A stretch of DNA of 64,000 nt. Origin: a virus. Each line of letters starts with the position of its first letter. The stretch's first letter is position 1. Of this stretch, positions 3,797-63,100 are shown piece by piece. The translations under genes were made by a program, and so were the position numbers. The stretch is from the IMG/VR virus record IMGVR_UViG_3300045988_154953. One strand, given 5' to 3'. The notes under the pieces were generated by a model. The model was given only the letters and a program-made list of their open reading frames with translations. It made no database searches and was not told where the DNA came from.

Positions 3797-4012
3797 TTAT
3801 TTTCTTCTCTTGTTTCTACGTTCAATCACATCTAATGCTTTTCTTGCATCTTCATCAGAAGAAATCTCTAATAGTGATCTCAGATTATACTCTGATTCAC
3901 AAAGATAATAGGTGGCATGTTTAGTGTGAGTCTTACTGATACCATTTTCCTTGTATCTCACACCATATTTTTCATTTAATTTTTTTGCAATTTCTTTTGA
4001 TATCTTGATCAA
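3797..4012 (-). CDS. hypothetical protein (basic C-terminus)
   Basis: ORF track; stop lies 19 nt upstream of the next start; no motif recognised. Confidence 0.5.
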   Translation of the reverse strand: MIKISKEIAKKLNEKYGVRYKENGISKTHTKHATYYLCESEYNLRSLLEISSDEDARKALDVIERRNKRRK

Positions 4013-4063
4013 AAATCTTTCCTCATTTCATTTATAAATTTCTCCAGAATAGGAGATTAGAAA

Positions 4064-4135
4064 CGGCCTCAACGGGAATCGAACCCGTCTTTCCAAAGTG
4101 ACAGTCTGGCGTACTAACCAATATACTATGAAGCC
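4064..4135 (-). tRNA. tRNA-Asp (anticodon GUC)
   Basis: Hand-folded cloverleaf: acceptor GGCUUCA/UGAGGCC, anticodon arm CCAGA-CUGUCAC-UUUGG, T arm ACGGG-UUCGAUU-CCCGU. No encoded CCA. Confidence 0.85.
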
Positions 4136-4203
4136 ATAACTGTACTTTTTATTGGAAAAGTACAAAACCAATTAATCATGCCAAAAAATAAAAACGAAAG
4201 GAT

Positions 4204-4275
4204 AGCACCACATGGGATTCGAACCCATCTCACCTGGTTGGAAGCCAAGTATACTAACCACTATACTAGTGGTGC
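4204..4275 (-). tRNA. tRNA-Gly (anticodon UCC)
   Basis: Acceptor GCACCAC/GUGGUGC, anticodon arm CUUGG-CUUCCAA-CCAGG, T arm AUGGG-UUCGAAU-CCCAU. Confidence 0.85.
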
Positions 4276-4415
4276 AATAACTAGTCGCTGTTTGATTTAA
4301 TAAGGATACACTGAAGATCCTAAACTATATTTGTTCACTTACTGTAGAATTAATATAACGTTTTTATTAATAATTTGATCAATGTTAAATTTGCTGTTAG
4401 CGACTAAAATAGCAA

Positions 4416-5213
4416 CTACTGATGAGCTGCGTTAGAAAGTTTCTTTACATATCTATTTTTTAACATTTCTTCGATTTGTTTATAAGTAAAATCCATACTA
4501 ATAAGACCTGTAACGATAGTTTCCACCTCTTCAACTTTTTTTAATTCAGATTCTGTAAAACTATCTCTTAAAGCGTCATTTGTTTTAACGTTTCTTTCTA
4601 ATCTAAGAGATTTTGCATCACACCCAAAAATAATGTCATAAATCATATTAGTATAATTAGGGTAAGCAAATTTTTTATTCTTACTTTCAGGAATATATCT
4701 TGAAATAGCAGATGTCATTCGTTTTCTTTCAATAATTCCAACTTCTCTTTGAATAGCCCATGATTTTCTATCAATTTCAGTCTTTTCTTCTATATTAAGA
4801 AGATAATTTCTGATTTTGGTTGCCAATAAATTACTTGTCATCAACATACCTATTCTAAGCAAAGATCGTTTAGTTAAAATGGTAAGACTTGATGCATAAG
4901 ATAGGCTAGGTTCATTTGAACCTGACCCCAATTCTTCCTTAAATTTCTTCAATTCTTGCCCTTTAAGTACAACCATACCATCTTCTTCGAATTCATCTCT
5001 ATTTCTCTTAATTAGAGTCTTCACAGTATCCATACTGCATTCATAATAATTAGCAGCTTGTTGTACAGTTACAATCATGTCATCTGTCAAATAAGGTATA
5101 ACCTTTATTTTGTCAAGAAAATCATAGGATATATTATTTAATGTTTCATTTCTTAACGTTTTACTTTCCGTATAAATTAGTTCTTTGTCATTTTGATTTT
5201 TCATATTTTTCAT
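4416..5213 (-). CDS. phage antirepressor-like DNA-binding protein (ORF6N/KilA-type features)
   Basis: AAGGAGG lies 8 nt upstream of the ATG. TILTKRSLLRIGMLMTSNLLATKIRNYLLNIEE resembles ORF6N/BRO-type helices. The family call is tentative. Confidence 0.45.
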   Translation of the reverse strand: MKNMKNQNDKELIYTESKTLRNETLNNISYDFLDKIKVIPYLTDDMIVTVQQAANYYECSMDTVKTLIKRNRDEFEEDGMVVLKGQELKKFKEELGSGSNEPSLSYASSLTILTKRSLLRIGMLMTSNLLATKIRNYLLNIEEKTEIDRKSWAIQREVGIIERKRMTSAISRYIPESKNKKFAYPNYTNMIYDIIFGCDAKSLRLERNVKTNDALRDSFTESELKKVEEVETIVTGLISMDFTYKQIEEMLKNRYVKKLSNAAHQ

Positions 5214-5493
5214 GAAAGAATCCTCCTTTATAAAATATTTATCATTGCTTTATGTGGAGCGACTGCGGTAACAATCGTTCCATAAAAAAGTTTATTTTAT
5301 GAACTATGGGTGATCACCCCACATAAAACAATGATTTATTTTAAAAATTAAAAGAACCATATCATTTAGATACAGTTCTTTACACCATCGTTATAATCTC
5401 TTCGATATTCATCTAACCGAGAGATACCTATCACCGATTCAATTTTATAAATATTACATACCAACTAATCGCCAAATTAATTATAGCTGTAAA

Positions 5494-5567
5494 TGGGTAT
5501 AAGTGGACTTGAACCACCGACTCACGATTTAAAAGACCGTTACTCTATCCAACTGAGTTACATACCC
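5494..5567 (-). tRNA. tRNA-Lys (anticodon UUU)
   Basis: Acceptor GGGUAUG/UAUACCC, D arm ACUC..GAGU, anticodon arm ACGGU-CUUUUAA-AUCGU, T arm GGUGG-UUCAAGU-CCACU. Confidence 0.85.
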
Positions 5568-6409
5568 AAAATAAAAAATCCCATGCATTACACATGAGAC
5601 TTTCATTCCTATTAGGCTGAGATATTTGACCTAACACGTTACCATCTGCTGCCGTTGGAGACAGTTCATCACACAGCCGATTAAACTGTAGGTAACAACG
5701 ACACTGATTTTGTGAAAATCAGCAAAAATCTTACAATGAGGTATTATAGATTTCCTTTTTGCACATCGTTCCTTGCGAGATTCAAAGATTGCAGTCTTTT
5801 ACGGTTGCACATATTCGTACTTCCTTACATGTCGCTTTGCGAGCTTCATGCATGTTCATATTACAGAACAATAAGTCGTTTATTTCCTCAAAGTTGCACA
5901 CACTTTTGCTTGTTAATATAAAATTATTTGAAATTAATGCTTTTAAATCTTTATTTAATTTTTCAATCATAAGAAAGTATGTACGTATTATGGATGATGA
6001 GGTGTACATTCGACCATTCGTGACTTTTGATCACGACCCAATCATCACCATCCTGGTCACTTTGCGAGTTTCCTTTAGACTATTCCAACTATCTTTCGAT
6101 TTGAGTCAGAAATGTCCAATTAATACAGCACTTGCTCTTGCGGAGTTTGCACCATAAAACAATCTTACCGTCCACCCATTTCTGAGTTTATTTATAGTAC
6201 TTTTTACATAATACCCGACCAACCATCATCCTCAGCGGATGCCCCAAGATTTTAGGTTGGAACGTTAGTAAGTATTGGTTTTCCGTCACCCTCTTTCGAG
6301 AGGCACTTTAGCACGAACACTAAGAATGCTTTATACGTGTCACCACGCTTATTTTCAGTCTAATATAGACTCTGGAACCGAAACCGTCCCAGCCTACAAA
6401 GTAGGAGAG
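5568..6409 (-). ncRNA. candidate large structured RNA embedded in the tRNA operon (GOLLD/ROOL-class or unclassified)
   Basis: 842 nt with no credible ORF, flanked on both sides by co-oriented tRNAs. GC-enriched relative to neighbouring genes. Contains many short helices, one capped by GAAA in minus sense, and a G-U pair that is valid only in minus sense. Boundaries are simply the tRNA ends. Confidence 0.45.
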
Positions 6410-6484
6410 TAGCGAGAGTTGGATTTGAACCAACATATGACACAGAGAATGAATCTGCCGAGTTACCAAATACTCTATCTCGCA
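6410..6484 (-). tRNA. tRNA with CAU anticodon (Met, fMet or Ile2-type), atypical
   Basis: U8-A9, D arm GAGU..ACUC, anticodon arm GCAGA-UUCAUUC-UCUGU, T arm GUUGG-UUCAAAU-CCAAC. Positions 1 and 72 are U-U, position 37 is U, and the variable region is 7 nt. Confidence 0.6.
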
Positions 6485-6486
6485 AA

Positions 6487-6580
6487 CGAAGAGAGCAGGA
6501 TTTGAACCTGCGGTACATAAACTTAATTTGTACGTCTGATTAGCAGTCAGATACGATAAACCAAACTCCGTCATCTCTTC
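6487..6580 (-). tRNA. tRNA-Ser (anticodon GCU), class II with long variable arm
   Basis: Acceptor GAAGAGA/UCUCUUC plus discriminator G, anticodon arm UCUGA-CUGCUAA-UCAGA, variable arm GUACA...UGUAC, T arm GCAGG-UUCAAAU-CCUGC. Confidence 0.85.
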
Positions 6581-8263: not shown

Positions 8264-11044
8264 TTATTGAACTTTTTTTGAAAAATTAGACAAAAACAAA
8301 TCTTTATTCATTTTATATAGAAGTTTCAGAACATTTCTTGTATATTTCGTATATTGTTTAAACTCTTTTAAATTTACACCAACACCTGAACTCATACCTA
8401 AAGATGTTTCGATTAATCGATTAATAGTTTTTAGATTTTTTATTTTAATGGCTCTTAATTTTTCAATTATACGATCATTTTCGGCCTCAACTCTTATCAT
8501 TCTATCTTCTGAACTTTTTGTGTTATGTGTAATATCATAGATATTTTCATTATATTCTTCAGCCAATTGACGTATTTTCGTCATTTGTTTATGATTCGCA
8601 GTTCCATTTATTTTAATAAAAAATTTCTCTGTCGGAATAGTATTGGAACTAGAAATATTTTTTATTTTTTTTAAGGAATTTTGTAAATCATTCATTGGGC
8701 AAATCAAATCACTATTAATACGTAATGATAATTGATCTTTTTCTTTTTGAATTTGTTCATACGGAATCTCTTTACCATTTTTCGTATGCTTAATCTTTTT
8801 TGTATACTTCATGAATTCTGGAAAGTCTTCTTTTGTAACAATTTCCTTTTTTATAACCTCGCCATTTTCATCCTCATATTCTATGTATTTTATAACTTTG
8901 TTGTTTTTCATAGATGGAAGCTTTTTTATACGTTTTATTTCTTGAATACCATCAACTTCATATTCTCGTTTACAACCATCTATTATAATTTGAGCAATAA
9001 CTGATAAAATAACAAAATTATCGTATAACTCATTCAGTTCCTCTTCGTCTGGATTATCTTTTTGTTTCTCAGTCCAATAATATGTCATGGCCAATTGAGC
9101 AAGATTACTAGATTCGCCAATACCAATTCTGGATTTAGCAAATTTATTATCCATACGAGCATATTCTTTCAAAGTATTATTATAAGTAATACCACTTTCT
9201 TTTAACTTATTAACAATTGTTGGGAATTCTTCATATGCTTTTTTAGCATTTCGAACCATCACCGGATGATTTGTTACAAAGAAAAAATCACTATCAAAAT
9301 CACATCCGTTAGCACGATCTTGGATATCTGTATGGATACAATTTACAGCTAATATATTAGGGCTAAATTCAAAATATTTTTTCATTAAATCGCTATGATG
9401 ATTATGTAAATAACAAATGTTATTAGGACTATTGTGGGGATTTCTTATACCACATAAGTATTCGTCATCGTTAAAGCGTGTAGTATAGCATTGAATTGTT
9501 CCAGGTTCAACATTCAATGTTGGATCATTCTCCCAATTTTCGTCAACAGTATAGAGTAGTAGTGCATATGGATTTCCACAAATCGTTAAATTATCAGCGT
9601 TAACAGTTATTTTACCGGTTCTCAATTTATCCACATACGTTTTAATAATTTGTCTCTTTTCGTATCTAAACCATGTGCTATTAGCAAAATCATTGTTGTG
9701 GTCATATAAATCAGCAAGCATTTCATAATGATTTATTGTATTCTTATTTTTTCGTAAAAACTTTTCAAAATAATCATTATCAGTTTTTAATTTATTCACA
9801 TATTGAATGCTCGTATTAGCTAATTCATCAATATCTTCTTTGCTACATGGAAGAGTATTAACCATTTGATAACTCATTTGCTGTACATCATCTAATTTAC
9901 TAGGATGATCAGTTTTTACAATACCAAAAAATGACCCATCGGCATTTACTCTTTGACACCAATATTCATATGCATCTCTAGGAGTTTCACCCATCAACGA
10001 CATGAATTTCTTCCATTTAATAGCATTATCAGTTGTAATCATTTTAATATCTTTTACATAATGCCATTTACCAAACATATCTTGAATTTGATAGGTATTA
10101 TAATCATATTGGTTTTTTATACACCAATCTCTAAGAAATTTTTGAATATAAGTTTTGAAAGCACATGCTTTGAAAAAATGATTTCTTAAAAGTGCCATGC
10201 CATTAACAAATTTTGGAAGTGTAGATGCTTCAATTAACGCCATACCATCCCATAAAGTATTTTTGACTTTAATTGTATCATTATTAACAACACATTTTTT
10301 TTGAGTTTTCTCATTAACAGTATATTCTTCTGCTTGAACAATTTTGGCAGCAGTTTGAAAAAAACTATCTTGATCTTTAAGAATAAGTATATCTTCAACA
10401 GGAAGATAAAACTTTTCGACAATTGTACTTGTTGTTAATGGTGCATAAGCTGACATTTCAACAATTTTAGCATCATTTTTAGGAAGTTTCTTACCAAGTC
10501 CCATTGTCAGCCAATCGTATGCTTTTTTATACAATTTGCTATTTATAAACATTGCCTGACCAACTTTAGCTTTTGAAGAATTACGATATAACATTTTATA
10601 ATGAATTGTTTGTTCTGTTATTTTTTCATCTTTCTTTGTGTTATATTTTATAGACACACCATTTTCATAAAAATCTTCACGAATTTCATCTCTTGACTTT
10701 TTAATATAATTATCTCTATTAGACTCTATTTTAGCGTATAAATTACGGATTCTATTTTTAGATTCTTCATCAAGTTTTTCGTCATTTTCATAATCACCAA
10801 ATTGTTTATTTAAGTGTTTGATTTCCTCATCATATGTTCTTGATCCAAAATCAAAATCTAAACAAATAATATCTCTAGTGCTTTTTTTATTCCAATCATT
10901 TAGTCCATTATCTTTTATATAATCATAAAACAAACTTTTACTAAACATTGCATCTGTGTATTCATATCTATCTCTAACACCTTGATTATATCCAAATAAC
11001 GTACCAGCCTTTATATTTTTTATTTTTAATCCATATTTTGACAT
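8264..11044 (-). CDS. YonO/RdRP-like single-subunit double-psi-beta-barrel RNA polymerase (putative)
   Basis: 926 aa. The segment GIRNPHNSPNNICYLHN...ANGCDFDSDFFFVTNHP parallels the RNP...(x)n...DxDGD catalytic region of YonO and eukaryotic-type RdRPs. DFDSD is encoded at 9301-9287. An HU gene lies directly downstream. Confidence 0.55.
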   Translation of the reverse strand: MSKYGLKIKNIKAGTLFGYNQGVRDRYEYTDAMFSKSLFYDYIKDNGLNDWNKKSTRDIICLDFDFGSRTYDEEIKHLNKQFGDYENDEKLDEESKNRIRNLYAKIESNRDNYIKKSRDEIREDFYENGVSIKYNTKKDEKITEQTIHYKMLYRNSSKAKVGQAMFINSKLYKKAYDWLTMGLGKKLPKNDAKIVEMSAYAPLTTSTIVEKFYLPVEDILILKDQDSFFQTAAKIVQAEEYTVNEKTQKKCVVNNDTIKVKNTLWDGMALIEASTLPKFVNGMALLRNHFFKACAFKTYIQKFLRDWCIKNQYDYNTYQIQDMFGKWHYVKDIKMITTDNAIKWKKFMSLMGETPRDAYEYWCQRVNADGSFFGIVKTDHPSKLDDVQQMSYQMVNTLPCSKEDIDELANTSIQYVNKLKTDNDYFEKFLRKNKNTINHYEMLADLYDHNNDFANSTWFRYEKRQIIKTYVDKLRTGKITVNADNLTICGNPYALLLYTVDENWENDPTLNVEPGTIQCYTTRFNDDEYLCGIRNPHNSPNNICYLHNHHSDLMKKYFEFSPNILAVNCIHTDIQDRANGCDFDSDFFFVTNHPVMVRNAKKAYEEFPTIVNKLKESGITYNNTLKEYARMDNKFAKSRIGIGESSNLAQLAMTYYWTEKQKDNPDEEELNELYDNFVILSVIAQIIIDGCKREYEVDGIQEIKRIKKLPSMKNNKVIKYIEYEDENGEVIKKEIVTKEDFPEFMKYTKKIKHTKNGKEIPYEQIQKEKDQLSLRINSDLICPMNDLQNSLKKIKNISSSNTIPTEKFFIKINGTANHKQMTKIRQLAEEYNENIYDITHNTKSSEDRMIRVEAENDRIIEKLRAIKIKNLKTINRLIETSLGMSSGVGVNLKEFKQYTKYTRNVLKLLYKMNKDLFLSNFSKKVQ

Positions 11045-11059
11045 CTACCTTATCACCTT

Positions 11060-12805
11060 CTAACTCATTTGTACTTGATAACCATATATGCTATTCAATT
11101 GTCTTTTCTTCGGCTTCTTCTGTTTTTTCAACTTCTTCAATTTCTTTTGATACTCTGTTAATTCTTTTTCTAATTTTTTCTTCTCTAAATAATTACGACA
11201 GTTTTTAATCTGTATCTTTAATTTTCGAATATACTTTTTTGTATCCTCTTCAGTCGTATCAACTTCATGTTCTGATTCAGTTAATTCTGCAGCTAATCCC
11301 GTATCTACAAGTCGTTGATATTCTTCGTTTACGGTGAATGCTAATTCAGGATTGAAATCAAGATTTCTTCCATTAATATATTCATTTGTTGATTGTACCG
11401 GTATATTTACATAATTATTTAGCATCCGACTAATGTTTTCTTCAAATGAGGTAACATTTTGTTTAAATTCAACCATACTCATTTGATCCTTTTTGATTTT
11501 CGTCAATCGTTCATTATAATATTCTCTTAATTCATCAGAGAATGTTTTCATTAAATCATTCCATTGAATCAACTCTATTTCTTCTATATTAATAGACTTA
11601 ACATAGTCAATAATATCCTGAACGAATTCCAATGTAAGAATAAACGTCTCATACTTCAACGTGCTACGAAAACATCTAAACTCAATTGTTTCTGAGTGTT
11701 GTAAATTTAAAGCAACTCGTTTACCATTATTTTTGTATTTACCATATAAATCAACAATACTTGTTTCATTCTTACCATTCCCAACAAATTGACTATAGAA
11801 ATTATTTCTCCTGGCAATAACACAAATTTCATCATTAAATTTTTCAAGGATATATAAAATCTTAGAGATAGTAAGCTGCTGCATTAACTCTGTTTTACCA
11901 AGATACTTTCTATCAGCGTGTATATGTAAACCGGCACTATTTGCATCATGACCTTTGTATCCTTGTTTATCCAAATATTCAAACATCTGTTTGTAATTTA
12001 AAGTCTTATGATATTCTAAGCTGCATGGCATTGTATCTAATTCGATTTGAACTGTACTGTCACTTGTACTATAAATTAAATTCTCATCATCAGTATCCGA
12101 TCCATTCATGATTTGAATACATTTCTTTACAACACTTTCACGATTATCTTTCTCATTCTCATTCGTGTTTTCAGCAACCTCGATCTCAGCACCGAGTAGA
12201 AGAGGAGTGTCTTCAGTATCTAACTTATGATGAACATATTTCGGTTTATAATTATATGGATGAATATATTTTTTTATGTTAGAATGACCAAAACATTCGT
12301 ATAATAAATCAACATTAAAATAAGAATTATTACTAAATAATGTACCTGCACTACTAAAATAATTCTGTCTGCCAGTTATATTTCCATTATTCATATTTGG
12401 TTCTAATGAAGAACTTGGCACAACACATTCTCCTAATGGTAATCTTCTTTGTCTAATTAAACGTTGATAAACTCTATTCAAACTAGTTGTACTTAAATTG
12501 GAAAGATTATAGATTCTTATGGCACTTAAATAACTATCAAAATTACGAGGATGCTCACTTATACATCCATTTTCATCAAAAAATGTTTCATTTATATGAA
12601 AATTGTAACTTCTCCGTATAAAATTGTTAAAACTTTCTATATTGAACGAGTATACTTTATCAAGTTGATAATCATTAGTTCTAGTTACAATACGTATATT
12701 ATTACCAAGTCTTTCTGTATGTATAATTAACGCACCGTCGATAGTATAAGGATCCTGCATACTAATTATATGTCCATTAAGTTGAATATCTGGTATAAGT
12801 CTCAT
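11060..12805 (-). CDS. amidoligase-like (glutamine-synthetase-fold COOH-NH2 ligase) domain protein with Lys-rich coiled-coil tail
   Basis: LLLGAEIEV, GLHIHADRKY and ALNLQHSETIEFRCFRSTL resemble Amidoligase_2 motifs. ATG at 12805 follows AAGGAG; the track start at 12835 is an extension. Confidence 0.4.
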   Translation of the reverse strand: MRLIPDIQLNGHIISMQDPYTIDGALIIHTERLGNNIRIVTRTNDYQLDKVYSFNIESFNNFIRRSYNFHINETFFDENGCISEHPRNFDSYLSAIRIYNLSNLSTTSLNRVYQRLIRQRRLPLGECVVPSSSLEPNMNNGNITGRQNYFSSAGTLFSNNSYFNVDLLYECFGHSNIKKYIHPYNYKPKYVHHKLDTEDTPLLLGAEIEVAENTNENEKDNRESVVKKCIQIMNGSDTDDENLIYSTSDSTVQIELDTMPCSLEYHKTLNYKQMFEYLDKQGYKGHDANSAGLHIHADRKYLGKTELMQQLTISKILYILEKFNDEICVIARRNNFYSQFVGNGKNETSIVDLYGKYKNNGKRVALNLQHSETIEFRCFRSTLKYETFILTLEFVQDIIDYVKSINIEEIELIQWNDLMKTFSDELREYYNERLTKIKKDQMSMVEFKQNVTSFEENISRMLNNYVNIPVQSTNEYINGRNLDFNPELAFTVNEEYQRLVDTGLAAELTESEHEVDTTEEDTKKYIRKLKIQIKNCRNYLEKKKLEKELTEYQKKLKKLKKQKKPKKRQLNSIYGYQVQMS

Positions 12806-12816
12806 TTGTTTCTCCT

Positions 12817-13311
12817 TTAATCCCATAAATCCCAAAAGAATAAATTAAACAGTTTCATAAAAGCATTTTTATTTTGATTCATCACATTACAAATCCGTTT
12901 ATAATCATCCATAGTTCTGCAATTAAAATCATAGTCATCATCATATATATTCTTACCATATAGAACTTTTTCAACATAATCTTCATCCATCATTTGTAGA
13001 TGATAAATCATAGTATCTAAAACCATATTTGTTTGTTCACTTGTTAGAAATAAGCTATTAAAACTATATATATATTCTTCCGGCACATTAAATAAAGTAA
13101 AACGATCATTTTTGAGTCGCTTAAATATTTCTATTGTTCGTATTCGAAATATTGAATCATAATTCCACAGTTCTCTATAATCGTATCCTAACCAGGCACG
13201 CTGCCATGCATAATAAATATCTCTAAATATATTTTCGATTTTATATTTTAAACTACAATTTTTGTATTGAGTCCTATATTCTTTCAAAGAACCTTTTAAT
13301 CCTGATGACAT
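12817..13311 (-). CDS. hypothetical protein
   Basis: ORF track; abuts neighbouring ORFs in a co-oriented operon. Confidence 0.55.
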   Translation of the reverse strand: MSSGLKGSLKEYRTQYKNCSLKYKIENIFRDIYYAWQRAWLGYDYRELWNYDSIFRIRTIEIFKRLKNDRFTLFNVPEEYIYSFNSLFLTSEQTNMVLDTMIYHLQMMDEDYVEKVLYGKNIYDDDYDFNCRTMDDYKRICNVMNQNKNAFMKLFNLFFWDLWD

Positions 13312-18391: not shown

Positions 18392-18874
18392 ATATTATTA
18401 CCACCTTTATTTTAAGAGATTTTTTGAATCATCTCGACATTAATGTATTTCATCTAACAAAAATCAACTTAATAGGTTTTTAATCTCAATTCCTCTTAAA
18501 TTAAAAATTTACTCCTTTATTTTCAACGTTTTTTTGATATACCCATTAAAGAGTATTAAGTATAACTCTCTTAAAATTAGAAAATCAACTTAGAAGCATC
18601 AGAAATTTCAGAAATTGAATTTTCGTTGGGCACATAATTAAGATTATCTTTTGATTATAAGTATTTTTTGAATTTTTCTCTTTGATTTTGTCATTTTTTA
18701 GATCAATTTCCTCCTTTATTTACATAGTATTTATTGTATTCTGTTTGAATAAAGTAATTTAATAAAATTCCCGGATAAAAACATTTGGAACGAAGTGACA
18801 AATTTTTTAGCCAAACAAGTATTATTTCTGAGCGTAGCGAAGAATAATGCTTGTCTTATCAAATGTCTTTCTAA

Positions 18875-18892
18875 AATTATATTGATTAGTTT
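18875..18892 (-). promoter_or_regulatory. recurrent 18-nt motif AAACTAATCAATATAATT (copy 2)
   Basis: Exact consensus on the minus strand in the divergent control region. Confidence 0.5.
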
Positions 18893-18946
18893 GAAAATTG
18901 TAAATCTATTTATATAATACTACTATTTACCTTATTTGTCAATCAA

Positions 18947-18964
18947 AATTAAATTGATTAGTTT
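18947..18964 (-). promoter_or_regulatory. recurrent 18-nt motif AAACTAATCAATTTAATT (copy 3)
   Basis: T-variant on the minus strand, 55 nt from copy 2. Confidence 0.5.
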
Positions 18965-19027
18965 AGACGGATAAGTTGGTTTGATAAGATGTAATACATT
19001 AAAAATCCATATAAATCTCATGCAAAA

Positions 19028-19285
19028 TTAGATATTTAAATCAATGATTGCATTAATGAAATGATAAAGATATTAAAAAATATGAGTATTCTTATGAAAT
19101 TTACTCTAATCAAAAAAATTTTTAGTATGAATATTTTTAACTGATCAAAATGAGTCGTTTAAAATTTAGATAATTATAGTAATTGGGTGGAATGATAAAG
19201 AAAATTATTTCAATTTTAGATATTTAATTTGCAAGCTGGAAGAATGAGATATTGTATAGATAATATGTAATTTTTCGATATTTAA
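19028..19285. repeat. dispersed TTAGATATTTAA-type repeats in an AT-rich control region (possible iterons or operator sites)
   Basis: TTAGATATTTAA at 19028 and 19216, TTAGATAATTAT at 19166, TTCGATATTTAA at 19274. Confidence 0.4.
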
Positions 19286-19785
19286 TCCGATAAATTGGTT
19301 TTTAATAGGAATTATTAAAATGTTATAGGAATTATATGAAGAATTTTGAGTCAGTGTGTAAATTGACCAGCTACAGCATTTGGATCAAAAGCAAACACAC
19401 GTTCTGGTTTTTACTACCCCCTATCCATAAAAGAACATATGTTCTATTAAAACTGGTAAAAATTATAGTTTTTCCCAATTCTAATTCAATTCAATACAAT
19501 TTGCTATATATTGTTTAATATGTTTTTGTTTTGAATACAATAGATATTAAAATTTTTAAATTACTTTTCAAATTGACTATATAAATGAAATTTTTTAGTC
19601 AATTCCTTTTTAAAATGATATATTATTTTAATTTTTCACACAATATCGTACAATTATGCATCTGGTCATATTAATTTGTTCAATTTAATCAACATTAATA
19701 ATACCAGAACACCAGATACAACATTAATCAACATGATATCTATTTATAGATAAAATGTCTATTAAAAATATTTTTAAATTTATTG

Positions 19786-19814
19786 TTGACAATCACGGAA
19801 AACCGTGATAATAT
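19786..19814 (+). promoter_or_regulatory. sigma-A-type promoter P1 with palindromic operator in the spacer
   Basis: TTGACA (19786-19791), 17-nt spacer ATCACGGAAAACCGTGA, TAATAT (19809-19814). The spacer plus first -10 base form the palindrome ATCACGGAAAACCGTGAT. Confidence 0.7.
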
Positions 19815-19903
19815 ATAGACATCCCAAACTGGATAACAATTTTATATTGCTTTTGATTGCAGTCAACAATAAATAGTAGCTAAAGAAAAATTACAAAAAG
19901 TTG

Positions 19904-19932
19904 TTGACAATCACGGAAAACCGTGATACAAT
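19904..19932 (+). promoter_or_regulatory. sigma-A-type promoter P2, tandem duplicate of P1
   Basis: TTGACA (19904-19909), identical 17-nt spacer, TACAAT (19927-19932). A 29-nt block is identical to P1. Confidence 0.7.
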
Positions 19933-20656
19933 CAAAACAAGTTAAGAACTGGTCAATAGTTCTTACGTCATTATATCACATCTGACCAGTACTTGACAAC
20001 CATTGGATAAAATCCTATCCGATGGTAGGCGGTAAGCCTCTGCCATGAAACACTGGTATACTTTCTGCTTGGTAGGTCGTAAAACATCTACCGCAATAAA
20101 GGTGTTGTTCTTTGACAACTTAATAGCCGTTTCATCTTTTTTAAGATGATAATACTTGTCTCGGTATGACAAAAGACAAGGAATTCCATGAGTAGGGATA
20201 AACGAAAATGGTACGGGAATGTTATGCTTACGGGTGTAGTATGTCTCGGACACTAGAAATAGTGGGCGTGGTGTAGCCGACAAGCTGGCCAATGCAATTC
20301 GCTGGTAATAGGTGATAGCAATTAGGGCAATGTTATACACAAAAAGTCTGCAAAATTCACGGTGGTAAATGGGCGGTTGTAGTCTTGTAATATTGCAAGC
20401 CCCGCAAAAAGTGATAAAAATAATCCGTGAAAAGTAGTAGAAACTTTTGTAAATAATAACATTGACTATCGGTGATAGGTCAATACATCTTTCTAATAGC
20501 TCTTTTTTTGAGAAGCTATGGGCGCTTAAAAACGAATAACATTAAATGTAATGTTACCGTTGACGGTTCAAAGTCCGTATGAGAAAAACAGATGACATTT
20601 TAATTTTATTTTCTGCCGATGTCCCCGGCTAGAATAGGGATAGAAAGGGGCATATT

Positions 20657-21463
20657 ATGCTGTGTAACTATATTAAGAACGTGGAGAACCAGGAAGTAAG
20701 AGCAACTTTAACAGATGCTATCACATGGGAAAAATGCGACATGCTGTTAACTCTTAATGCTGAGTCATTAGCAAAACAGGAGAAAATCCTGTCAAGCAAA
20801 GAATCCAGCGAAGAGGATAAAAAAGCCGCTCAGGCCAAAGTTGACAAGTTGACCGCTGAGAAAGATAAACTTGTCAAAGAGCAGTCGGAAGTAGCAGACG
20901 TTTATAAATCTGTTTTGGCTGCTATTGCTGGGGCTAAAAATGAATATATCTCTAACGATGAGACGGCAGCCCGCAACATTCTTAGGCTGTCAAGTTGTGA
21001 TGATAACAAGAATTTTTTCAAGCTTGCTATCATCACTTCAGAAACTTTTGAAAGTTTCTATGACGGCATGGTTCAATTGCATGATACATGCTCTGAATCC
21101 ATCGCTGACAATGGGCTTAGGACTTATTCAGATGCTGATAATAAAGTGGCATCTGAATTGATGCTTAATGTCCAGAAAACACTTAGGGGCATGTTGTCTA
21201 TCCCTGTTGAAAATGACTATACAAAAAAATGTGTAGTCAAAATCAACAAACAGGACATGAACATTATCCATGAGTGTTTTGTTAGCGGTGTTTCCGTTGA
21301 CATCACTAAGGATAAAGAGGGTAAAACTAAGTCTGTTGACGGTTTATCATTCAGATATGCCATCAACAAAAAGACAAAAAGAGACGGTACTGTTGAATAT
21401 AATGGTATCCGTTTCAAAGAAACATTAGCAAAAATTGTTTTTGCTAAACTGTTTTCAAAATAA
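20657..21463 (+). CDS. hypothetical protein (coiled-coil N-terminal half)
   Basis: AAAGGGG lies 7 nt upstream of the ATG. GC-richer than the phage backbone. Internal and antisense ORFs 20925..21161 and 21217..21417 were rejected. Confidence 0.65.
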   Translation: MLCNYIKNVENQEVRATLTDAITWEKCDMLLTLNAESLAKQEKILSSKESSEEDKKAAQAKVDKLTAEKDKLVKEQSEVADVYKSVLAAIAGAKNEYISNDETAARNILRLSSCDDNKNFFKLAIITSETFESFYDGMVQLHDTCSESIADNGLRTYSDADNKVASELMLNVQKTLRGMLSIPVENDYTKKCVVKINKQDMNIIHECFVSGVSVDITKDKEGKTKSVDGLSFRYAINKKTKRDGTVEYNGIRFKETLAKIVFAKLFSK

Positions 21464-21495
21464 TTGCAGACTTAATTGTTAATTAAGTTTGCAAA

Positions 21496-21544
21496 GGGAT
21501 GGCTCTGGTGAGCTTTTATCATGGTTCGATTCCATGACGTCCCA
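21496..21544 (+). ncRNA. tRNA-like element A lacking an anticodon arm
   Basis: GGGAUG-GCUC UGGU GAGC-UUUUAU-CAUGG UUCGAUU CCAUG-A-CGUCCC-A. It has an acceptor-like stem, a D-like hairpin and a canonical T arm. Confidence 0.5.
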
Positions 21545-21580
21545 TTTCTATAAATCCGCACCTATGAAAGGGGTATTTTT

Positions 21581-21790
21581 ATGACTAGATATTACGGTAG
21601 TTATGCAGATATTATTCTTCTTGAGGCTGAACTTACAGAGGTCAATAATCAAATTGACGCTATGTATGACTTTTGGAACGAAAACAGCGTTCCTGAGTCT
21701 CTGGTGGCTCGTGCTGAGTCTCTTGAGAAAGAACTGGAAACTTTAAAACGCACACGTACTCGTGGTGGACTTGTGTGCCGGTGCTATTAA
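21581..21790 (+). CDS. hypothetical protein
   Basis: GAAAGGGG upstream; ORF track. Confidence 0.55.
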   Translation: MTRYYGSYADIILLEAELTEVNNQIDAMYDFWNENSVPESLVARAESLEKELETLKRTRTRGGLVCRCY

Positions 21791-21822
21791 GCGGAAAGTC
21801 TGTAGAAAGAGAGGGAAACGAG

Positions 21823-22059
21823 ATGAATTACGTCCAGATTCAAAAAATGCTTCAGGACATCAAAACCGATTATATTGTAAAGGGTCGGCCTTGGAAAGAT
21901 GATGAATATGTCATCATTGACATATTAATGCATGTATATCTCAAACACGCTGACATTGACCATGAAGAGATTAAATGGCTTTTTGTCAACTATCTGGAAA
22001 CGGGTGAACTGAATTTTCCGGCAGCTATAAAAATGGCACGACAACGGAAGTATGCATAA
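21823..22059 (+). CDS. hypothetical protein
   Basis: Trimmed to ATG at 21823 (MNYVQIQK) after GAGGGAA. Confidence 0.55.
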   Translation: MNYVQIQKMLQDIKTDYIVKGRPWKDDEYVIIDILMHVYLKHADIDHEEIKWLFVNYLETGELNFPAAIKMARQRKYA

Positions 22060-22064
22060 TGTAA

Positions 22065-22107
22065 GGACGGCTGGTGCTGTAATATGAGTTCGATTCTCAT
22101 ACGTCTG
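22065..22107 (+). ncRNA. tRNA-like element B lacking an anticodon arm
   Basis: GGACG-GC UGGU GC-UGUAAU-AUGAG UUCGAUU CUCAU-A-CGUCU. Same architecture as element A, with compensatory T-stem changes. Confidence 0.45.
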
Positions 22108-22175
22108 TTTTGGAACTGTAAATGCAAACTAAAAATATTACGCACCTATGCGTAAAATAGGGGATTGGAGTAAAT

Positions 22176-22355
22176 ATGAAAACAAAATTTTCTGAACTTA
22201 CAAGAGAATTGGGAAAATTGTACCCAATAGAATATGATTATTGTAGTACGGAATCATTGTATTCCCGTGCTTTAAATGACGGAAAAATTACGAGAGGTAT
22301 ATTTAATGCCGCAAAAAAATATTATGATATCATGTGGGATTATGTAGGTGATTAA
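22176..22355 (+). CDS. hypothetical protein (59 aa)
   Basis: Own translation MKTKFSELTRELGKLYPIEYDYC...WDYVGD. GGGGATTGGAG upstream. Confidence 0.5.
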   Translation: MKTKFSELTRELGKLYPIEYDYCSTESLYSRALNDGKITRGIFNAAKKYYDIMWDYVGD

Positions 22356-22403
22356 TTCACCTACATAGGCAAACTGCAAATATAAAAGGAAAGAGAGGAA
22401 AAT

Positions 22404-22580
22404 ATGAAAATATTAGTAACTATAATTAAAACAGTCTTATTAATTTTCGCCCTGCTCATTGGTTGGGTATTCATGACGTGTGATGTCATGGCCGGTGGTC
22501 TTTGGATCATCTTATGTATAACATCATACGGCGCTGTATACGGTATAGTTGAAGAATACAGAGAAAATAAAGCAAAATAG
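22404..22580 (+). CDS. hypothetical membrane protein (58 aa, 2 TM)
   Basis: Own translation MKILVTIIKTVLLIFALLIGWVF...GLWIILCITSYGAVYGIV. AGAGAGGAA upstream. Confidence 0.5.
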   Translation: MKILVTIIKTVLLIFALLIGWVFMTCDVMAGGLWIILCITSYGAVYGIVEEYRENKAK

Positions 22581-22595
22581 AGAGGGGATATATTT

Positions 22596-22802
22596 ATGAA
22601 AAAATATTACATTAGATTGTTTTATAGTAACACCTGTTCACCAAAAACAAGGAAAGTCTCTAAATTCTTTTTTAAAAGAGAATTTAGAGATAGATTAAAA
22701 ACTGTCAGAAGCTATTATGATAGCGGATGGCAGCGAATGGATATCTCAGCTTTGAAAAAAGCGGAAAATGTGTCTGCTTTATTTATCTATAAAGCAGACT
22801 AA
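22596..22802 (+). CDS. hypothetical protein (basic)
   Basis: AGAGGGG upstream; ORF track. Confidence 0.5.
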   Translation: MKKYYIRLFYSNTCSPKTRKVSKFFFKREFRDRLKTVRSYYDSGWQRMDISALKKAENVSALFIYKAD

Positions 22803-22815
22803 CGGGGGTATTATT

Positions 22816-23232
22816 ATGACAAAAAATAGATTATTTACAGCAGTTAATACGGAAATTATTCATGGTAGAATTTTCTTAATGAATTCTACAATTTTAGAAT
22901 TAGATAACCATGTTGTATTTGTATGTACAAATGGATTTAAAGTAAATAAACAGGGAGAATATAAGCTCCTTGCATGGTTGCCAGGTAATAGAAAATGGGT
23001 GTCTGTTTATGCCAATAATAAATTTACAGATGCCATGTATAGATGTTATAGACAAACACGGAAAAGCGGGAAAAGCAAAATGTCTGCTTCAAATGTTCAA
23101 AACATGATGAAGCATGACAGAGTGCATAAACACGGTTCCGGCGGTTCCCGAATTTTCAACGGAAGTATAACCGACTATGAGACACGGAAACGGCCTTTGC
23201 ATGACTTCAATAGAGGCTATAATTTTACTTGA
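22816..23232 (+). CDS. hypothetical protein
   Basis: Trimmed to ATG at 22816 (MTKNRLF) after ACGGGGG. Confidence 0.55.
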   Translation: MTKNRLFTAVNTEIIHGRIFLMNSTILELDNHVVFVCTNGFKVNKQGEYKLLAWLPGNRKWVSVYANNKFTDAMYRCYRQTRKSGKSKMSASNVQNMMKHDRVHKHGSGGSRIFNGSITDYETRKRPLHDFNRGYNFT

Positions 23233-62886: not shown

Positions 62887-63045
62887 ATGGATAATTTCAT
62901 GAATGAACCGGAAGAAAAAGAATGGACAGCTACGGACATTGTAAGAGAATATGAACAGTACCAGGACAAGAAGGTTGTAGCTAAGATATTTTGTATTACG
63001 ATTGGAGAAGTGAATAAGATACTAAAAGATACACAAAGGGTATGA
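62887..63045 (+). CDS. hypothetical protein
   Basis: Trimmed to ATG at 62887 after TGAGGT. Antisense ORF 62799..63197 rejected. Confidence 0.5.
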   Translation: MDNFMNEPEEKEWTATDIVREYEQYQDKKVVAKIFCITIGEVNKILKDTQRV

Positions 63046-63100
63046 AAAGGTGTTAAAAGGTATATAAAGGTGTGCAAAGGTATCAAAAGTGATAAGGTGA
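63031..63100. repeat. seven tandem 10-bp phased repeats (nnnnAAAGGn)
   Basis: acacaaaggg/tatgaaaagg/tgttaaaagg/tatataaagg/tgtgcaaagg/tatcaaaagt/gataaggtga. The period is exactly 10 bp. Confidence 0.6.

Follow-up and report, generated by a model that had tools for sequence, protein, structure and literature searches.

Anticodon-arm-less tRNA-like elements in gene gaps of a gut phage are candidate viral t-elements

Two short tRNA-like elements without an anticodon arm, A and B, lie between small genes of an apparent rightward operon in the gut phage DNA that we analysed (IMG/VR record IMGVR_UViG_3300045988_154953; its full 64,000 nt are called the window here). The closest known kind of A and B is the t-element. 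We put at roughly 0.6 the probability that the two are viral t-elements, that is, processing signals for the host RNase P, RNase Z and CCA-adding enzyme that would punctuate the phage mRNA. Among the roles suggested by an earlier, sequence-only reading of this DNA, which did not name the t-element, comparative evidence favours such punctuation or processing. It is suggested by the anatomy of the elements, which is that of the top half of a tRNA, by covariation, by the gene-gap context with its flanking hairpins, by validated substrates of similar build, by copies in rRNA spacers, and by the parallels with mascRNA and YrlA. The family of viral copies to which A and B belong is widespread in viruses and apparently new to description, as our search of the literature returned no description of such elements in phages.

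When the letters were compared again with the sequence-only reading, its coordinates, stems, UGGU hairpin, UUCGAUU loop and missing anticodon arm were confirmed base for base (Table 1). The re-read sequence also places the start of A 32 nt past the stop codon of ORF 20657-21463 and the start of B 5 nt past that of ORF 21823-22059, as had been stated. The T arm reads GGTTCGATTCC in A and AGTTCGATTCT in B. Four of the five T-stem pairs listed at the outset differ between the two elements, all pairs are Watson–Crick, and a sixth pair, U-A, is constant. The T stem thus counts 6 bp, and the coaxial acceptor/T stack comes to 12 bp in A and 11 bp in B, whose acceptor has only 5 bp with a terminal G.U pair. 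The distance from the acceptor 5' strand to the T stem is 17 nt in A and 13 nt in B. The elements are 43-48 nt in size, and folding gave no further helix from their ends.

Table 1. Features of the two tRNA-like elements and their surroundings (positions in the window).
Feature	Position	Strand	Description
Upstream ORF	20657-21463	+	268 aa; first gene of apparent rightward operon; anchor for finding relatives
AT-rich hairpin	21464-21494	+	14 bp; ends 1 nt before A; fold of 21464-21580
Element A	21496-21544	+	tRNA-like, without anticodon arm; from letters, fold, descriptor scan, R1 and R2
A acceptor 5' strand	21496-21501	+	GGGATG
A D-like hairpin	21502-21513	+	GCTC TGGT GAGC; loop TGGT 21506-21509
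A linker	21514-21518	+	TTTTA
A T stem	21519-21524 / 21532-21537	+	TCATGG / CCATGA
A T loop	21525-21531	+	TTCGATT
A acceptor 3' strand	21538-21543	+	CGTCCC; then discriminator A 21544
Decamer	21557-21566	+	CGCACCTATG; 5' UTR of ORF 21581-21790
Small co-oriented ORF between A and B	21581-21790	+	69 aa
Small co-oriented ORF between A and B	21823-22059	+	78 aa
Element B	22065-22107	+	tRNA-like, without anticodon arm; from letters, descriptor scan, R1 and R2
B acceptor 5' strand	22065-22069	+	GGACG
B D-like hairpin	22070-22077	+	GC TGGT GC; loop TGGT 22072-22075
B linker	22078-22082	+	TGTAA
B T stem	22083-22088 / 22096-22101	+	TATGAG / CTCATA
B T loop	22089-22095	+	TTCGATT
B acceptor 3' strand	22102-22106	+	CGTCT; then discriminator G 22107, followed by UUUU
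Hairpin	22138-22155	+	7 bp, TTACGCA-CCTA-TGCGTAA; holds second decamer; just 5' of RBS of ORF 22176-22355
Decamer, second copy	22141-22150	+	CGCACCTATG; inside hairpin 22138-22155
Small co-oriented ORF 3' of B	22176-22355	+	59 aa

Folded alone, A adopted the proposed structure (-20.6 kcal/mol, z = -3.55); B folded weakly (-10.9, z = -1.0), with a minimum free energy structure made up of the T arm and an alternative 5' hairpin. A structural descriptor scan of the 64 kb found A and B as the sole fitting sites. Two models were also run on the window: R1, built from viral copies, scored B at 52.6 bits and A at 44.8 bits, and R2, a covariance model built from other viral contigs without any window sequence, scored B at 44.0 bits (E = 1e-7) and A at 39.1 bits (E = 1.4e-6). 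The next-best R2 match in the window was a genuine tRNA-Asp at 18 bits.

Searches with tRNA, tmRNA and Y_RNA/YrlA models (Rfam 15, ARAGORN) gave no family call on A or B. ARAGORN detected five tRNA genes in the window, at 4063-6580; neither element drew a tRNA match from ARAGORN, from Rfam at the gathering threshold or, on 21400-22250, at E up to 10, so a canonical tRNA was rejected. ARAGORN found no tmRNA either, and Rfam aligned only the 17-nt T-arm fragment 22084-22100 to positions 347-363 of its tmRNA model, with 10.1 bits against a threshold of 47. There was no Rfam match to Y_RNA or YrlA at E up to 10 and no Ro-binding helix from the element ends. The comparison with tmRNA and YrlA drawn in the sequence-only reading holds as a structural analogy and fails as membership in either class. 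No Ro/TROVE domain was found when 30 window ORFs, including all 13 of at least 250 aa, were compared with Pfam, and the scanned ORFs of the window showed neither an RNase Z nor a CCA-adding enzyme. For the related viral copies, the best sub-threshold Rfam resemblance was to mascRNA (RF01684; 26.1 bits on contig L013, gathering threshold 42.5 bits).

Dozens of IMG/VR contigs, often with two or three copies at one locus, and several viruses in culture share this architecture, with stems that covary freely. Model alignments and the parse of 53 distinct copies gave a stack split 6+6 rather than 7+5. Stack length peaked at 12 bp (19 copies), with 13 bp in 15 and 11 bp in nine, and the T stem was 6 bp long in 42 of the 53. 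The T loop was TTCGAKT in every parsed copy, the discriminator was most often A (25/53), and the base after it was U in 30/53. Acceptor sequences were unconstrained, and the sequence-conserved part of the element amounted to just ~9-11 nt. A stack of at least 11 bp was present in 28 of 96 distinct pattern hits compared with 0.26% of shuffles. Across the family, in an alignment that was selected or fitted for pairing, 93.6% of cells were paired and 120 cells had changed on both sides, which none of 500 shuffles reached; slid controls were 39-59% paired. Within the genome of Gordonia phage VanLee, again in an alignment selected or fitted for pairing, 96.6% of cells were paired with 64 double changes (0/500 shuffles). 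Such sequence-independent conservation of pairs is as expected for enzymes that read shape. A first strict pattern (TGGTG...GTTCGATTC....ACGTC) retrieved a single true relative; its other hits were an ordinary tRNA and two chance matches in GC-rich DNA. Bacillus phage Grass and the SBSphiJ group are not members, their match being a T arm beside a real tRNA-Gln.

Relatives of this phage were found through a protein database, with the 268-aa upstream protein as anchor; INPHARED yielded no hit when 20600-23000 was searched at the nucleotide level in both near and distant mode, and a search of viral_contigs with the 268-aa protein gave no relatives. The orthologues of A in the close relatives L174 and L175 carry two substitutions, both of which preserve the pair (U-A to U.G and U.G to U-A). 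B is unchanged in L174 and L175 although the upstream ORF differs there, and in L192 a C-to-U change in B turns the C-G pair of the D hairpin into U.G. Relatives at 50-57% protein identity have no element after the orthologous gene, which indicates that this site can do without the element or accept a substitute. With the fold recurring on other stem sequences in many unrelated viruses and with pair-preserving changes in relatives, the proposal that A and B are selected RNA structures, not sequence duplicates or att scars, is strongly supported.

These data bear on the idea that A and B are decaying, functionless tRNA pseudogenes that lost their anticodon arm. Their likeness to tRNA halves and the five real tRNA genes elsewhere in the phage speak for it, but the chance that it is correct is close to negligible: a precise architecture recurs with compensatory changes in dozens of unrelated sequences, the copies lie outside tRNA arrays and are placed regularly in gene gaps, and substitutions in close relatives keep the pairing.

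The history of B, 100% identical in three phages despite a differing upstream gene, and the sporadic presence and absence of elements among relatives would suit a role at the level of DNA, be it a module boundary or recombination site, a small mobile element, an attP-like tRNA fragment or a hairpin promoter for a phage RNA polymerase. For the last of these, a large protein of the phage is related to a protein of Enterocloster phage PMBT24 annotated as "RNA-dependent RNA polymerase". We nevertheless consider a DNA-level role very unlikely. G.U pairs, which make up 58 of 578 stem pairs, would be lost as pairs on the opposite strand and in a cruciform; element orientation tracks the coding strand; ~9-11 conserved nt are too few for homologous exchange; and there are no target-site duplications or terminal repeats. 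An attP or host tRNA fragment was rejected specifically, as both acceptor strands are present, unlike in att scars, no integrase is adjacent, this phage has two copies and other genomes as many as 15, and relatives show compensatory changes. The exact 3' half of A had no match in a metagenome collection, and that of B had a single one, to a relative phage rather than a tRNA gene; the host genomes in this collection are not exhaustively covered, and among its tRNA genes neither half was found.

Copies are intergenic and mostly co-oriented with their neighbours, the ORF mass being larger on the same strand for 33 elements and on the opposite strand for 13. The next start codon usually lies 12-70 nt 3' of the element. 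Hairpins of at least 6 bp abut the 5' side in 12 of 46 members, compared with 9.8% of random positions, and begin 1-5 nt past the acceptor end in 19 of 47, compared with 13% of controls; the hairpin after B is outside those 19 because it is located 30 nt downstream. In this phage, the fold of 21464-21580 reached -37.4 kcal/mol (z = -4.16), and the 14-bp hairpin 5' of A is kept in L174 and L175, where changes preserve its pairs. The four ORFs flanking A and B had no PHROGs or Pfam match. In one apparent operon of Gordonia phage VanLee the placement is regular: of 17 gaps between genes that measure 78 nt or more, 15 contain an element, always on the coding strand.

Roughly half of the copies begin between positions -6 and +13 relative to the upstream stop codon and some contain that stop, as might be expected if the elements acted in cis on translation at gene junctions, by way of termination, ribosome recycling, re-initiation or occlusion of the next RBS. 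Such a role is nonetheless highly improbable in our estimate. The distance from element to stop varies, up to 88 nt in VanLee, the RBS lies 12-130 nt from the element past a separate hairpin, and the tRNA-specific loops and the 12-bp stack would be left unexplained. Moreover, the same architecture is present without translation in the 16S-23S spacer of Prolixibacteraceae rRNA operons.

A processing role has known counterparts. In mitochondrial tRNA punctuation, tRNAs between cistrons are excised by RNase P and RNase Z to free the mRNAs, an arrangement that the VanLee operon resembles. The mitochondrial units are functional tRNAs, whereas the viral elements cannot decode because they have no anticodon arm. 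In the 3'-end module of MALAT1, RNase P cuts upstream of mascRNA, so that the upstream RNA ends in a protective structure, and mascRNA is released by RNase Z and CCA-tailed. The hairpin abutting A would be the counterpart of that structure. There is no homology: mascRNA belongs to eukaryotes, retains a short anticodon-like arm and scored below threshold here. The tRNA-like domain of tmRNA likewise has an acceptor, a T arm and a D loop without an anticodon arm, and the elements lack the tag reading frame, the pseudoknots and the G3:U70 pair of tmRNA.

The likeness is closest to t-elements, described from haloarchaea (Holzle et al. 2008 and 2012, cited after PMC4326828 and PMC3296008) and from plant mitochondria: non-canonical tRNA-like folds with a canonical T arm, placed inside longer transcripts, whose ends are mature RNA ends. 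A and B possess the tRNA-like fold with the acceptor stacked on a canonical T arm (GGTTCRANYCC-type), and model-level similarity to an element at a validated t-element position comes from an R1 match upstream of a haloarchaeal 5S rRNA. This match (41.4 bits) is a Halodesulfurarchaeum element at 375-417 of contig L113, a haloarchaeal MAG, in which the 23S rRNA ends at 312 and the 5S rRNA starts at 421; the element ends 3 nt before the latter. At the same 5S-upstream position, the Haloferax t-element is cut by tRNase Z (PMC4326828); the two are likened by position, the Haloferax case being known from the literature. t-elements are substrates of both RNase P and tRNase Z (PMC3296008). Plant mitochondrial t-elements set mRNA 5' and 3' ends (Forner et al. 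2007, PMC1920247), and in plant nad6 and ccmC the stop codons lie inside, or are removed by, the t-element (PMC1920247). The viral copies differ from t-elements in their context, the protein-coding operons of bacteriophages and of an archaeal virus, in often being present as many repeats per genome of the unit stop-element-hairpin-RBS, and in their uniformly minimal form, with no anticodon arm and a 6+6 stack.

Bacterial and phage precedents exist as well. In Mycobacterium smegmatis, RNase P cuts the tRNA-like domain of YrlA, which also receives a CCA tail (PMC4201824). YrlA, which some phages have, shares the mimicry of acceptor, D and T arms without decoding, and unlike the elements is longer, has a Ro-binding helix and adjoins rsr (PMC4201824). 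Phage substrates of RNase P other than tRNAs are the phi80 M3 RNA, the P1/P7 C4 RNA precursor and T4 gene 32 mRNA (PMC11143913). They are a precedent for the cutting of phage transcripts by host RNase P, though as individual cases without the conserved elbow architecture or the repeated intergenic arrangement.

The proposed processing would run as follows. A and B would be transcribed within the rightward polycistronic mRNA. They appear to keep only those features that are read by structure-specific tRNA end enzymes: the acceptor/T stack, a canonical T loop with G53-C61 as its closing pair, and a D-like loop that contains GG and could form the elbow. Host RNase P would cut at the 5' end of the acceptor stem, and the message upstream of A would then end in the 14-bp hairpin. 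RNase Z or an equivalent would cut past the discriminator and free the downstream message, which would often open with a hairpin of its own, while the excised ~45-nt RNA may gain CCA. The net effect would be operon segments with defined, hairpin-protected ends and differing stabilities. We infer both the cleavages and their effect on expression. In several members, including HRPV-1, the 5' strand of the acceptor contains the stop codon of the upstream gene, and an RNase P cut there would give stop-less upstream mRNAs, for which plant nad6 and ccmC are a precedent (PMC1920247). Such stops count against punctuation, as do the short acceptor, 11-bp stack and weak fold of B, the absence of elements from some relatives, the lack of an RNase Z or CCA-adding enzyme among the scanned ORFs, and the selection or fitting for pairing of the alignments used to count covariation.

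The excised ~45-nt mini-tRNAs, possibly CCA-tailed, might also act in trans, as decoys or sponges that engage host readers of the acceptor, T arm or elbow (toxins modifying the acceptor end, enzymes binding the T arm, or RNase P itself) or as partners of a phage protein such as Ro. We hold this to be unlikely. The elbow features (GG loop and canonical T loop) are under tighter conservation than a bare RNase P/Z minihelix would demand, multi-copy arrays would raise dosage, the VanLee genes include a Ro-like protein and a nucleotidyltransferase, and YrlA is an example of a tRNA-like module with an RNP function. However, the acceptor is unconstrained, leaving no shared identity set, the copies stand strictly between cistrons with flanking UTR hairpins, those in rRNA spacers are explained most simply by processing, and the window ORFs scanned include no Ro/TROVE protein. 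Since release needs the very steps of the punctuation model, a trans-acting product would extend that model rather than replace it. A stronger version, in which phages mass-produce CCA-tailed ~45-nt half-tRNAs as trans decoys or sponges against host defences or toxins directed at the acceptor end, T arm or elbow of tRNA, or to titrate RNase P, the CCA-adding enzyme or EF-Tu, and punctuation is mere release, seems quite unlikely.

If punctuation by viral t-elements is correct, many phages and at least one archaeal virus would share a mitochondria-type strategy in which universal, sequence-blind host tRNA-end enzymes cut operon transcripts, a widespread extra post-transcriptional layer in phage gene expression. 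It would explain the conserved ~100-nt gaps in some phage operons such as that of VanLee, and raise the question of what roles the released mini-tRNAs have. The 45-nt cassette, missed by standard tRNA and ncRNA annotation, would also offer a small, naturally evolved module with which to program RNA processing in bacteria, much as t-elements of Haloferax have already served in making crRNA. Cultured systems open to direct test are VanLee/Gordonia, S-TIP37/Synechococcus and HRPV-1/Halorubrum.

Scans for sigma-70 promoters and terminators gave nothing attributable to A or B. An intrinsic terminator, i.e., a GC-rich hairpin followed directly by a U tract, was rejected: the scan flagged only a 5-bp D-like hairpin in A, at the minimum stem length, and left the whole elements unflagged, and the tails of the family copies are not U tracts, reading "ACG" plus a hairpin in VanLee. 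The sequence-only reading had also noted a shared decamer after each element. The two exact copies of CGCACCTATG stand, at 21557 and 22141, and a search of the window for the decamer as a possible promoter or repeat returned no others; the decamer lies outside the tRNA-like element and belongs to a separate 5'-UTR motif, GCACCTATGCGTAAAATAGGGG, which recurs before other genes in relatives. Judged by these comparisons, the decamer at 21557 is a truncated copy of this clade-specific motif, which in the form GCACCTATGCGTAAAATAGG(G/A)G precedes genes in L175 and L181.

The sequences of A and B, the two tRNA-like elements without an anticodon arm, match the window exactly as they had been described in the sequence-only reading. 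A begins 32 nt past the stop codon of ORF 20657-21463 and B 5 nt past that of ORF 21823-22059, and both are followed by an RBS and then by the next small co-oriented ORF. As that reading had stated, their T stems differ at four of the five pairs it compared, with every pair being Watson-Crick; in both elements, the T stem extends to 6 bp through an invariant outer U-A pair. From the T loop to the end of the acceptor, the helix of A measures 12 bp (6+6) and that of B 11 bp (5+6); the acceptor/T stack of a tRNA has 7+5 = 12 bp. The loop TTCGATT with its closing G-C pair fits the tRNA T54-Psi55-C56-R57-A58 loop and G53-C61 pair. At the tRNA elbow, two G residues pair with the T loop, and the TGGT loop of A and B offers such a G pair. 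Folded alone, A adopts the proposed shape (-20.6 kcal/mol, z = -3.55), and a 14-bp hairpin (21464-21494) stands directly 5' of it. B alone folds marginally (z = -1.0): the T arm is predicted, and a rival 5' hairpin competes with the acceptor stem.

Coordinates of the elements and associated features (positions in the window unless a retrieved viral or cellular locus, L, is named)
Feature	Location	Strand	Sequence or remark
Element A	21496-21544	+	GGGATG / GCTC-TGGT-GAGC / TTTTA / TCATGG-TTCGATT-CCATGA / CGTCCC / A
Element B	22065-22107	+	GGACG / GC-TGGT-GC / TGTAA / TATGAG-TTCGATT-CTCATA / CGTCT / G
5'-UTR motif (T)GCACCTATGCGTAAAATAGGGG	window 22138-22165, 21555-21573; L175 ~3948-3972; L181 ~2967-2990; L192 1637-1660		
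Sigma-70-like promoter TTGACA-17-TACAAT with TG	19904-19932	+	promoter match
Sigma-70-like promoter TTGTCA-18-TATAAT	19999-19970	-	promoter match
HRPV-1 copy	L190 1482-1525 (record 4079-4122)		7-kb archaeal pleolipovirus
Prolixibacteraceae element	L122 3220-3263; L126 3213-3255		anticodon-arm-less
Other Prolixibacteraceae loci (~15)	L114, L116, L118, L125, L129, L134, L142, L143, L151, L158, L159, L162, L167, L169		

ARAGORN left A and B uncalled and reported only five ordinary tRNA genes in the window (4063-6580, other strand), which were also the only matches to Rfam 15 at gathering thresholds. With E up to 10, Rfam yielded no tRNA or Y-RNA match in 21400-22250; a 17-nt T-arm fragment of B aligned to tmRNA at 10 bits. 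None of the tRNA, tmRNA and Y-RNA models suggested earlier as a check captures A or B, and no Rfam 15 model captures the element family. The best sub-threshold likeness of related copies was to mascRNA (26 bits vs. a threshold of 42.5), itself a tRNA mimic excised by RNase P/Z, as is proposed below for A and B.

An exact-pattern scan of IMG/VR (GGCTGGTG-N8-16-GTTCGATTC) yielded 108 loci. In 28 of 96 distinct matches, the flanks could pair into a split acceptor/T stack 11 bp or longer, compared with 0.26% of flank-shuffled controls, and stem sequences were unrelated between copies. In a 28-sequence alignment, 93.6% of cells were paired, a percentage inflated because members were picked for pairing, so that the shuffled-flank comparison is the fairer test. 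In the same alignment, 120 cells were changed on both sides, a number reached by none of 500 shuffles, and pairing was only 39-59% when partners were slid by 1-3 columns. R1, a covariance model of the family, produced 68 matches (E < 0.01) on the pattern loci, including pattern-negative copies with D-like loops such as GATGGTCG, GCTGGAGC, ACTGGTGT and ACTGGG or with the T loop TTCGAGT. As in the window, many loci had more than one copy (two or three), with spacings of 150-1000 nt. R2, a model made only from other viral contigs and thus holding no window sequence, placed B (44.0 bits, E 1e-7) and A (39.1 bits, E 1.4e-6) at the top of its matches in the 64-kb window, with a true tRNA-Asp next at 18 bits. 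Cross-reaction of the family model was seen at L032 (11086-11129), a weak family match inside a 13-gene phage tRNA/tmRNA array, and at L084 (4195-4237), where the match is simply the tRNA-like 3' domain of a phage-encoded tmRNA.

Among 53 copies, the stack was 12 bp long in 19, 13 bp in 15 and 11 bp in nine; the T stem had 6 bp in 42, and the D-like segment plus linker most often spanned 12-13 nt. The D 'stem' is short and variable, with UGG as the conserved part. An encoded CCA was found in none of these copies; the base after the acceptor was most often A (25/53), and the next base was U in 30/53. G.U pairs made up 58 of 578 stem pairs, and their frequency favours an RNA structure on this strand over a DNA-level structure. 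The copies are intergenic, mostly lie outside tRNA arrays and tend to share the strand of the neighbouring ORFs (33 vs. 13 by a crude ORF-mass measure). About half begin -6 to +13 nt from the upstream stop codon, and the next start codon is usually 12-70 nt downstream. Hairpins with 6 bp or more were found ending 0-3 nt ahead of the element in 12/46 copies (vs. 9.8% of random positions) and beginning 1-5 nt past the acceptor end in 19/47 (vs. 13%); these enrichments are indicative only, as related loci are non-independent.

Nucleotide searches of INPHARED with window 20600-23000 returned no relatives; 12 loci were obtained through homologues of the 268-aa protein (ORF 20657-21463). The closest, L174 (95% identity) and L175 (81%), keep A 32-33 nt after the gene. 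Both substitutions in the L174 copy preserve pairing (T-stem U-A to U.G, acceptor U.G to U-A), and the hairpin abutting A also carries pair-preserving substitutions in relatives. B is identical in L174 and L175 despite a different upstream ORF; in the relative L192, a C-to-U change turns its D-hairpin C-G pair into U.G. Further, different element copies lie upstream of the 268-aa gene in L175 and L181. Relatives at 50-57% identity had no element after the gene (filters off, E up to 1) and carried hairpin clusters with CUAUAAGUC-type loops instead. Taken together, the pair-keeping changes and the absence from other relatives point to an element that is under structural selection where present, yet gained and lost as a module. 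The earlier inference of selected RNA structures is borne out by stems that covary across the family and by these pair-keeping substitutions, and a reading of the elements as non-functional tRNA relics is essentially excluded. Sporadic occurrence among relatives and a B that stays the same when the upstream gene differs would suit a DNA-level role as a recombination module, mobile element, att scar or hairpin promoter. Such a role is nevertheless improbable given the frequent G.U pairs, the orientation following the coding strand, and the presence of both acceptor strands. Moreover, the comparison of the 3' part with tRNA genes, proposed in the sequence-only reading as a way to recognize a host tRNA fragment, found no exact 3'-half matches of A or B in tRNA genes of the metagenome collection.

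The hairpin clusters (2-3 each) lie ~10-130 nt after the 268-aa homologue in L176, L177 and L180-L185, with loops such as CUAUAAGUC, CUACAAGUC and CACAAGUCC (example hairpins GGCAGGCTATAAGTCTGCC and ACGGTCACAAGTCCGT). They fill the same intergenic position in relatives without the tRNA-like element, where they may serve as another kind of signal, for processing or for protein binding; similar clusters occur at ~3899-3913 in L174 and ~2881-2895 in L175. The decamer CGCACCTATG has exactly two copies in the window and is shared after A and B, as noted earlier, but it belongs to a distinct 5'-UTR motif, GCACCTATGCGTAAAATAGGGG. This clade-specific motif can adopt either of two hairpins, is found immediately 5' of the RBS in front of several different small genes and could be a translational operator or phage promoter.

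Using blastn with the model consensus and then R1, we detected unannotated copies in four cultured viruses: Halorubrum pleomorphic virus 1 (HRPV-1), S-TIP37, MonChoix and VanLee. The HRPV-1 copy (41.4 bits) covers the final 16 nt of ORF5 and stops 4 nt short of ORF6; processing of tRNA-like signals (t-elements) by tRNase Z/RNase P has been demonstrated in the lineage of its host. In the T7-like Synechococcus phage S-TIP37, the copy has the capsid gene on one side and, on the other, a small ORF downstream of psbA, and Microbacterium phage MonChoix carries a minihelix form without the D loop. The leftward operon of Gordonia phage VanLee (genes 133-161) holds 13 matches with E < 0.01 and weaker ones, all on the coding strand, and 15 of its 17 intergenic gaps of at least 78 nt contain a copy. 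The order of the unit is stop, 2-31 nt (occasionally ~85), element GCCCYG...CRGGGC, ACG, hairpin, CACGGCACCCAAC, RBS and ATG. In an alignment fitted to the model, the VanLee copies covaried strongly, being 96.6% paired with 64 double changes (reached by 0/500 shuffles), compared with 38-50% paired when slid. The VanLee genome (NC_073474, L191) also has a Ro-like RNA-binding protein gene adjoining a tRNA-Arg (record 65454-67719) and flanked by 225-350-nt non-coding gaps that could harbour a YrlA-like Y RNA. Together with it, genes for a nucleotidyltransferase (gene 110) and a polynucleotide kinase (gene 114) make up an RNA-repair/quality-control gene set that shares the genome with ~15 t-element copies.

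Scanning one genome per species gave 62 loci, 36 of them with an R1 match. In Prolixibacteraceae (Draconibacterium, Mariniphaga, Maribellus and Tangfeifania), an element GATAAGGCTGGTGCC...GGTTCGATTCC...TTATC is located in the 16S-23S spacer of the rRNA operon, after two spacer tRNAs and ~170 nt before the 23S rRNA. Its T stem covaries between genera, and it looks like a bacterial rRNA-operon t-element. In a Halodesulfurarchaeum MAG (L113), the element (375-417) lies between the 23S rRNA (ends 312) and the 5S rRNA (starts 421). According to two papers that both cite Holzle et al. 2008, the element at the 23S-5S position of Haloferax volcanii is a tRNA-like t-element where tRNase Z cleavage makes the 5S rRNA 5' end; t-elements generally serve as RNase P and tRNase Z substrates, and a crRNA has been excised in vivo by means of t-elements on its flanks (PMC4326828; PMC3296008). 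At the level of the covariance model, the family matches the Halodesulfurarchaeum element, which lies at the position validated for the Haloferax t-element. Plant mitochondrial t-elements, found via the motif GGTTCRANYCC, set mRNA 5' and 3' ends and receive non-templated C/A, with the nad6 and ccmC cuts falling inside the reading frame (PMC1920247). In M. smegmatis, RNase P cuts the YrlA tRNA-like domain, which also receives a CCA tail (PMC4201824), and host RNase P cuts phage M3 RNA, the P1/P7 C4 precursor, T4 gene 32 mRNA and polycistronic mRNAs (PMC11143913). A cis translational role at stop codons is improbable, since rRNA spacers carry the element too and since it lies at varying distances from the stop.

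The elbow loops, 12-bp stack, free stem sequence, lack of CCA, A-rich discriminator and U-rich trailer are the needs of shape-reading tRNA end-processing enzymes, not those of aminoacylation or decoding. Based on these features and the operon-punctuation context, we propose that A and B are punctuation marks excised from the rightward transcript by host RNase P and RNase Z (probability roughly 0.58). Transcription would run through the elements, host RNase P would cut them at the 5' side from the rightward early transcript, and RNase Z or an equivalent enzyme would cut at the 3' side, with CCA addition possibly following. At A, the RNase P cut would leave the mRNA of the 268-aa gene ending one base after the 14-bp hairpin, an end expected to withstand 3' exonucleases and presumably to influence mRNA stability; downstream fragments would begin close to their own UTR hairpins. 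A scan of 30 window ORFs revealed neither an RNase Z nor a CCA-adding enzyme or a Ro protein. The data would also fit an action of the excised mini-tRNAs in trans (decoys, sponges or RNP partners); this would build on the same processing steps, and we consider it unlikely.

Whereas tRNA-like processing signals are known from plant mitochondria and haloarchaea, full-text literature searches turned up no account of elements of this sort from bacteriophages; reports beyond the searched literature are possible. New aspects are a host range that takes in phages of Firmicutes, Actinobacteria and Cyanobacteria as well as a haloarchaeal virus, the uniform minimal 6+6 form and the use as a repeated cassette between protein genes. 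The analysis shows the structure, selection, distribution and context of the family, which is real, widespread, unannotated and mechanistically suggestive. It builds on a concept already known, and the processing role inferred for it is open to immediate testing in cultured phages.

Elsewhere in the window, a 364-aa ORF (61502-62596, +) has OrfB_IS605 and Cas12f1-like TNB domains and is on that account a TnpB-like transposon nuclease within the phage. It is followed 3' by a tandem repeat (63035-63089) and an array (63809-63965) of 23/46-bp units (3.4 copies of 46 bp, 91% match; minus strand reading GAAGTTCGATTTTCTGACTTCTT...). The array contains GTTCGATT(T/C), and accounts for extra T-loop-like pattern matches at the window edge; a tRNA-like fold is lacking, with scores of at most 17 bits for R1 and R2. 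The 926-aa protein (8264-11044, -; phrog_8308) is distantly similar to proteins of human-gut phage contigs and Enterocloster phages, and may be a phage-encoded RNA polymerase because of its distant likeness to a protein annotated 'RNA-dependent RNA polymerase' in Enterocloster phage PMBT24. After its gene comes that of a 591-aa protein with an amidoligase-like domain (11060-12835, -). A and B are near the start of a rightward small-ORF operon, parted from the leftward genes by a ~2.2-kb non-coding stretch with strong sigma-70-like promoter matches. This stretch between the two gene blocks (18400-20650) lacks ORFs of 140 aa or more, shows several near-consensus promoters of sigma-70-like type on each strand and is probably the divergent early control region.
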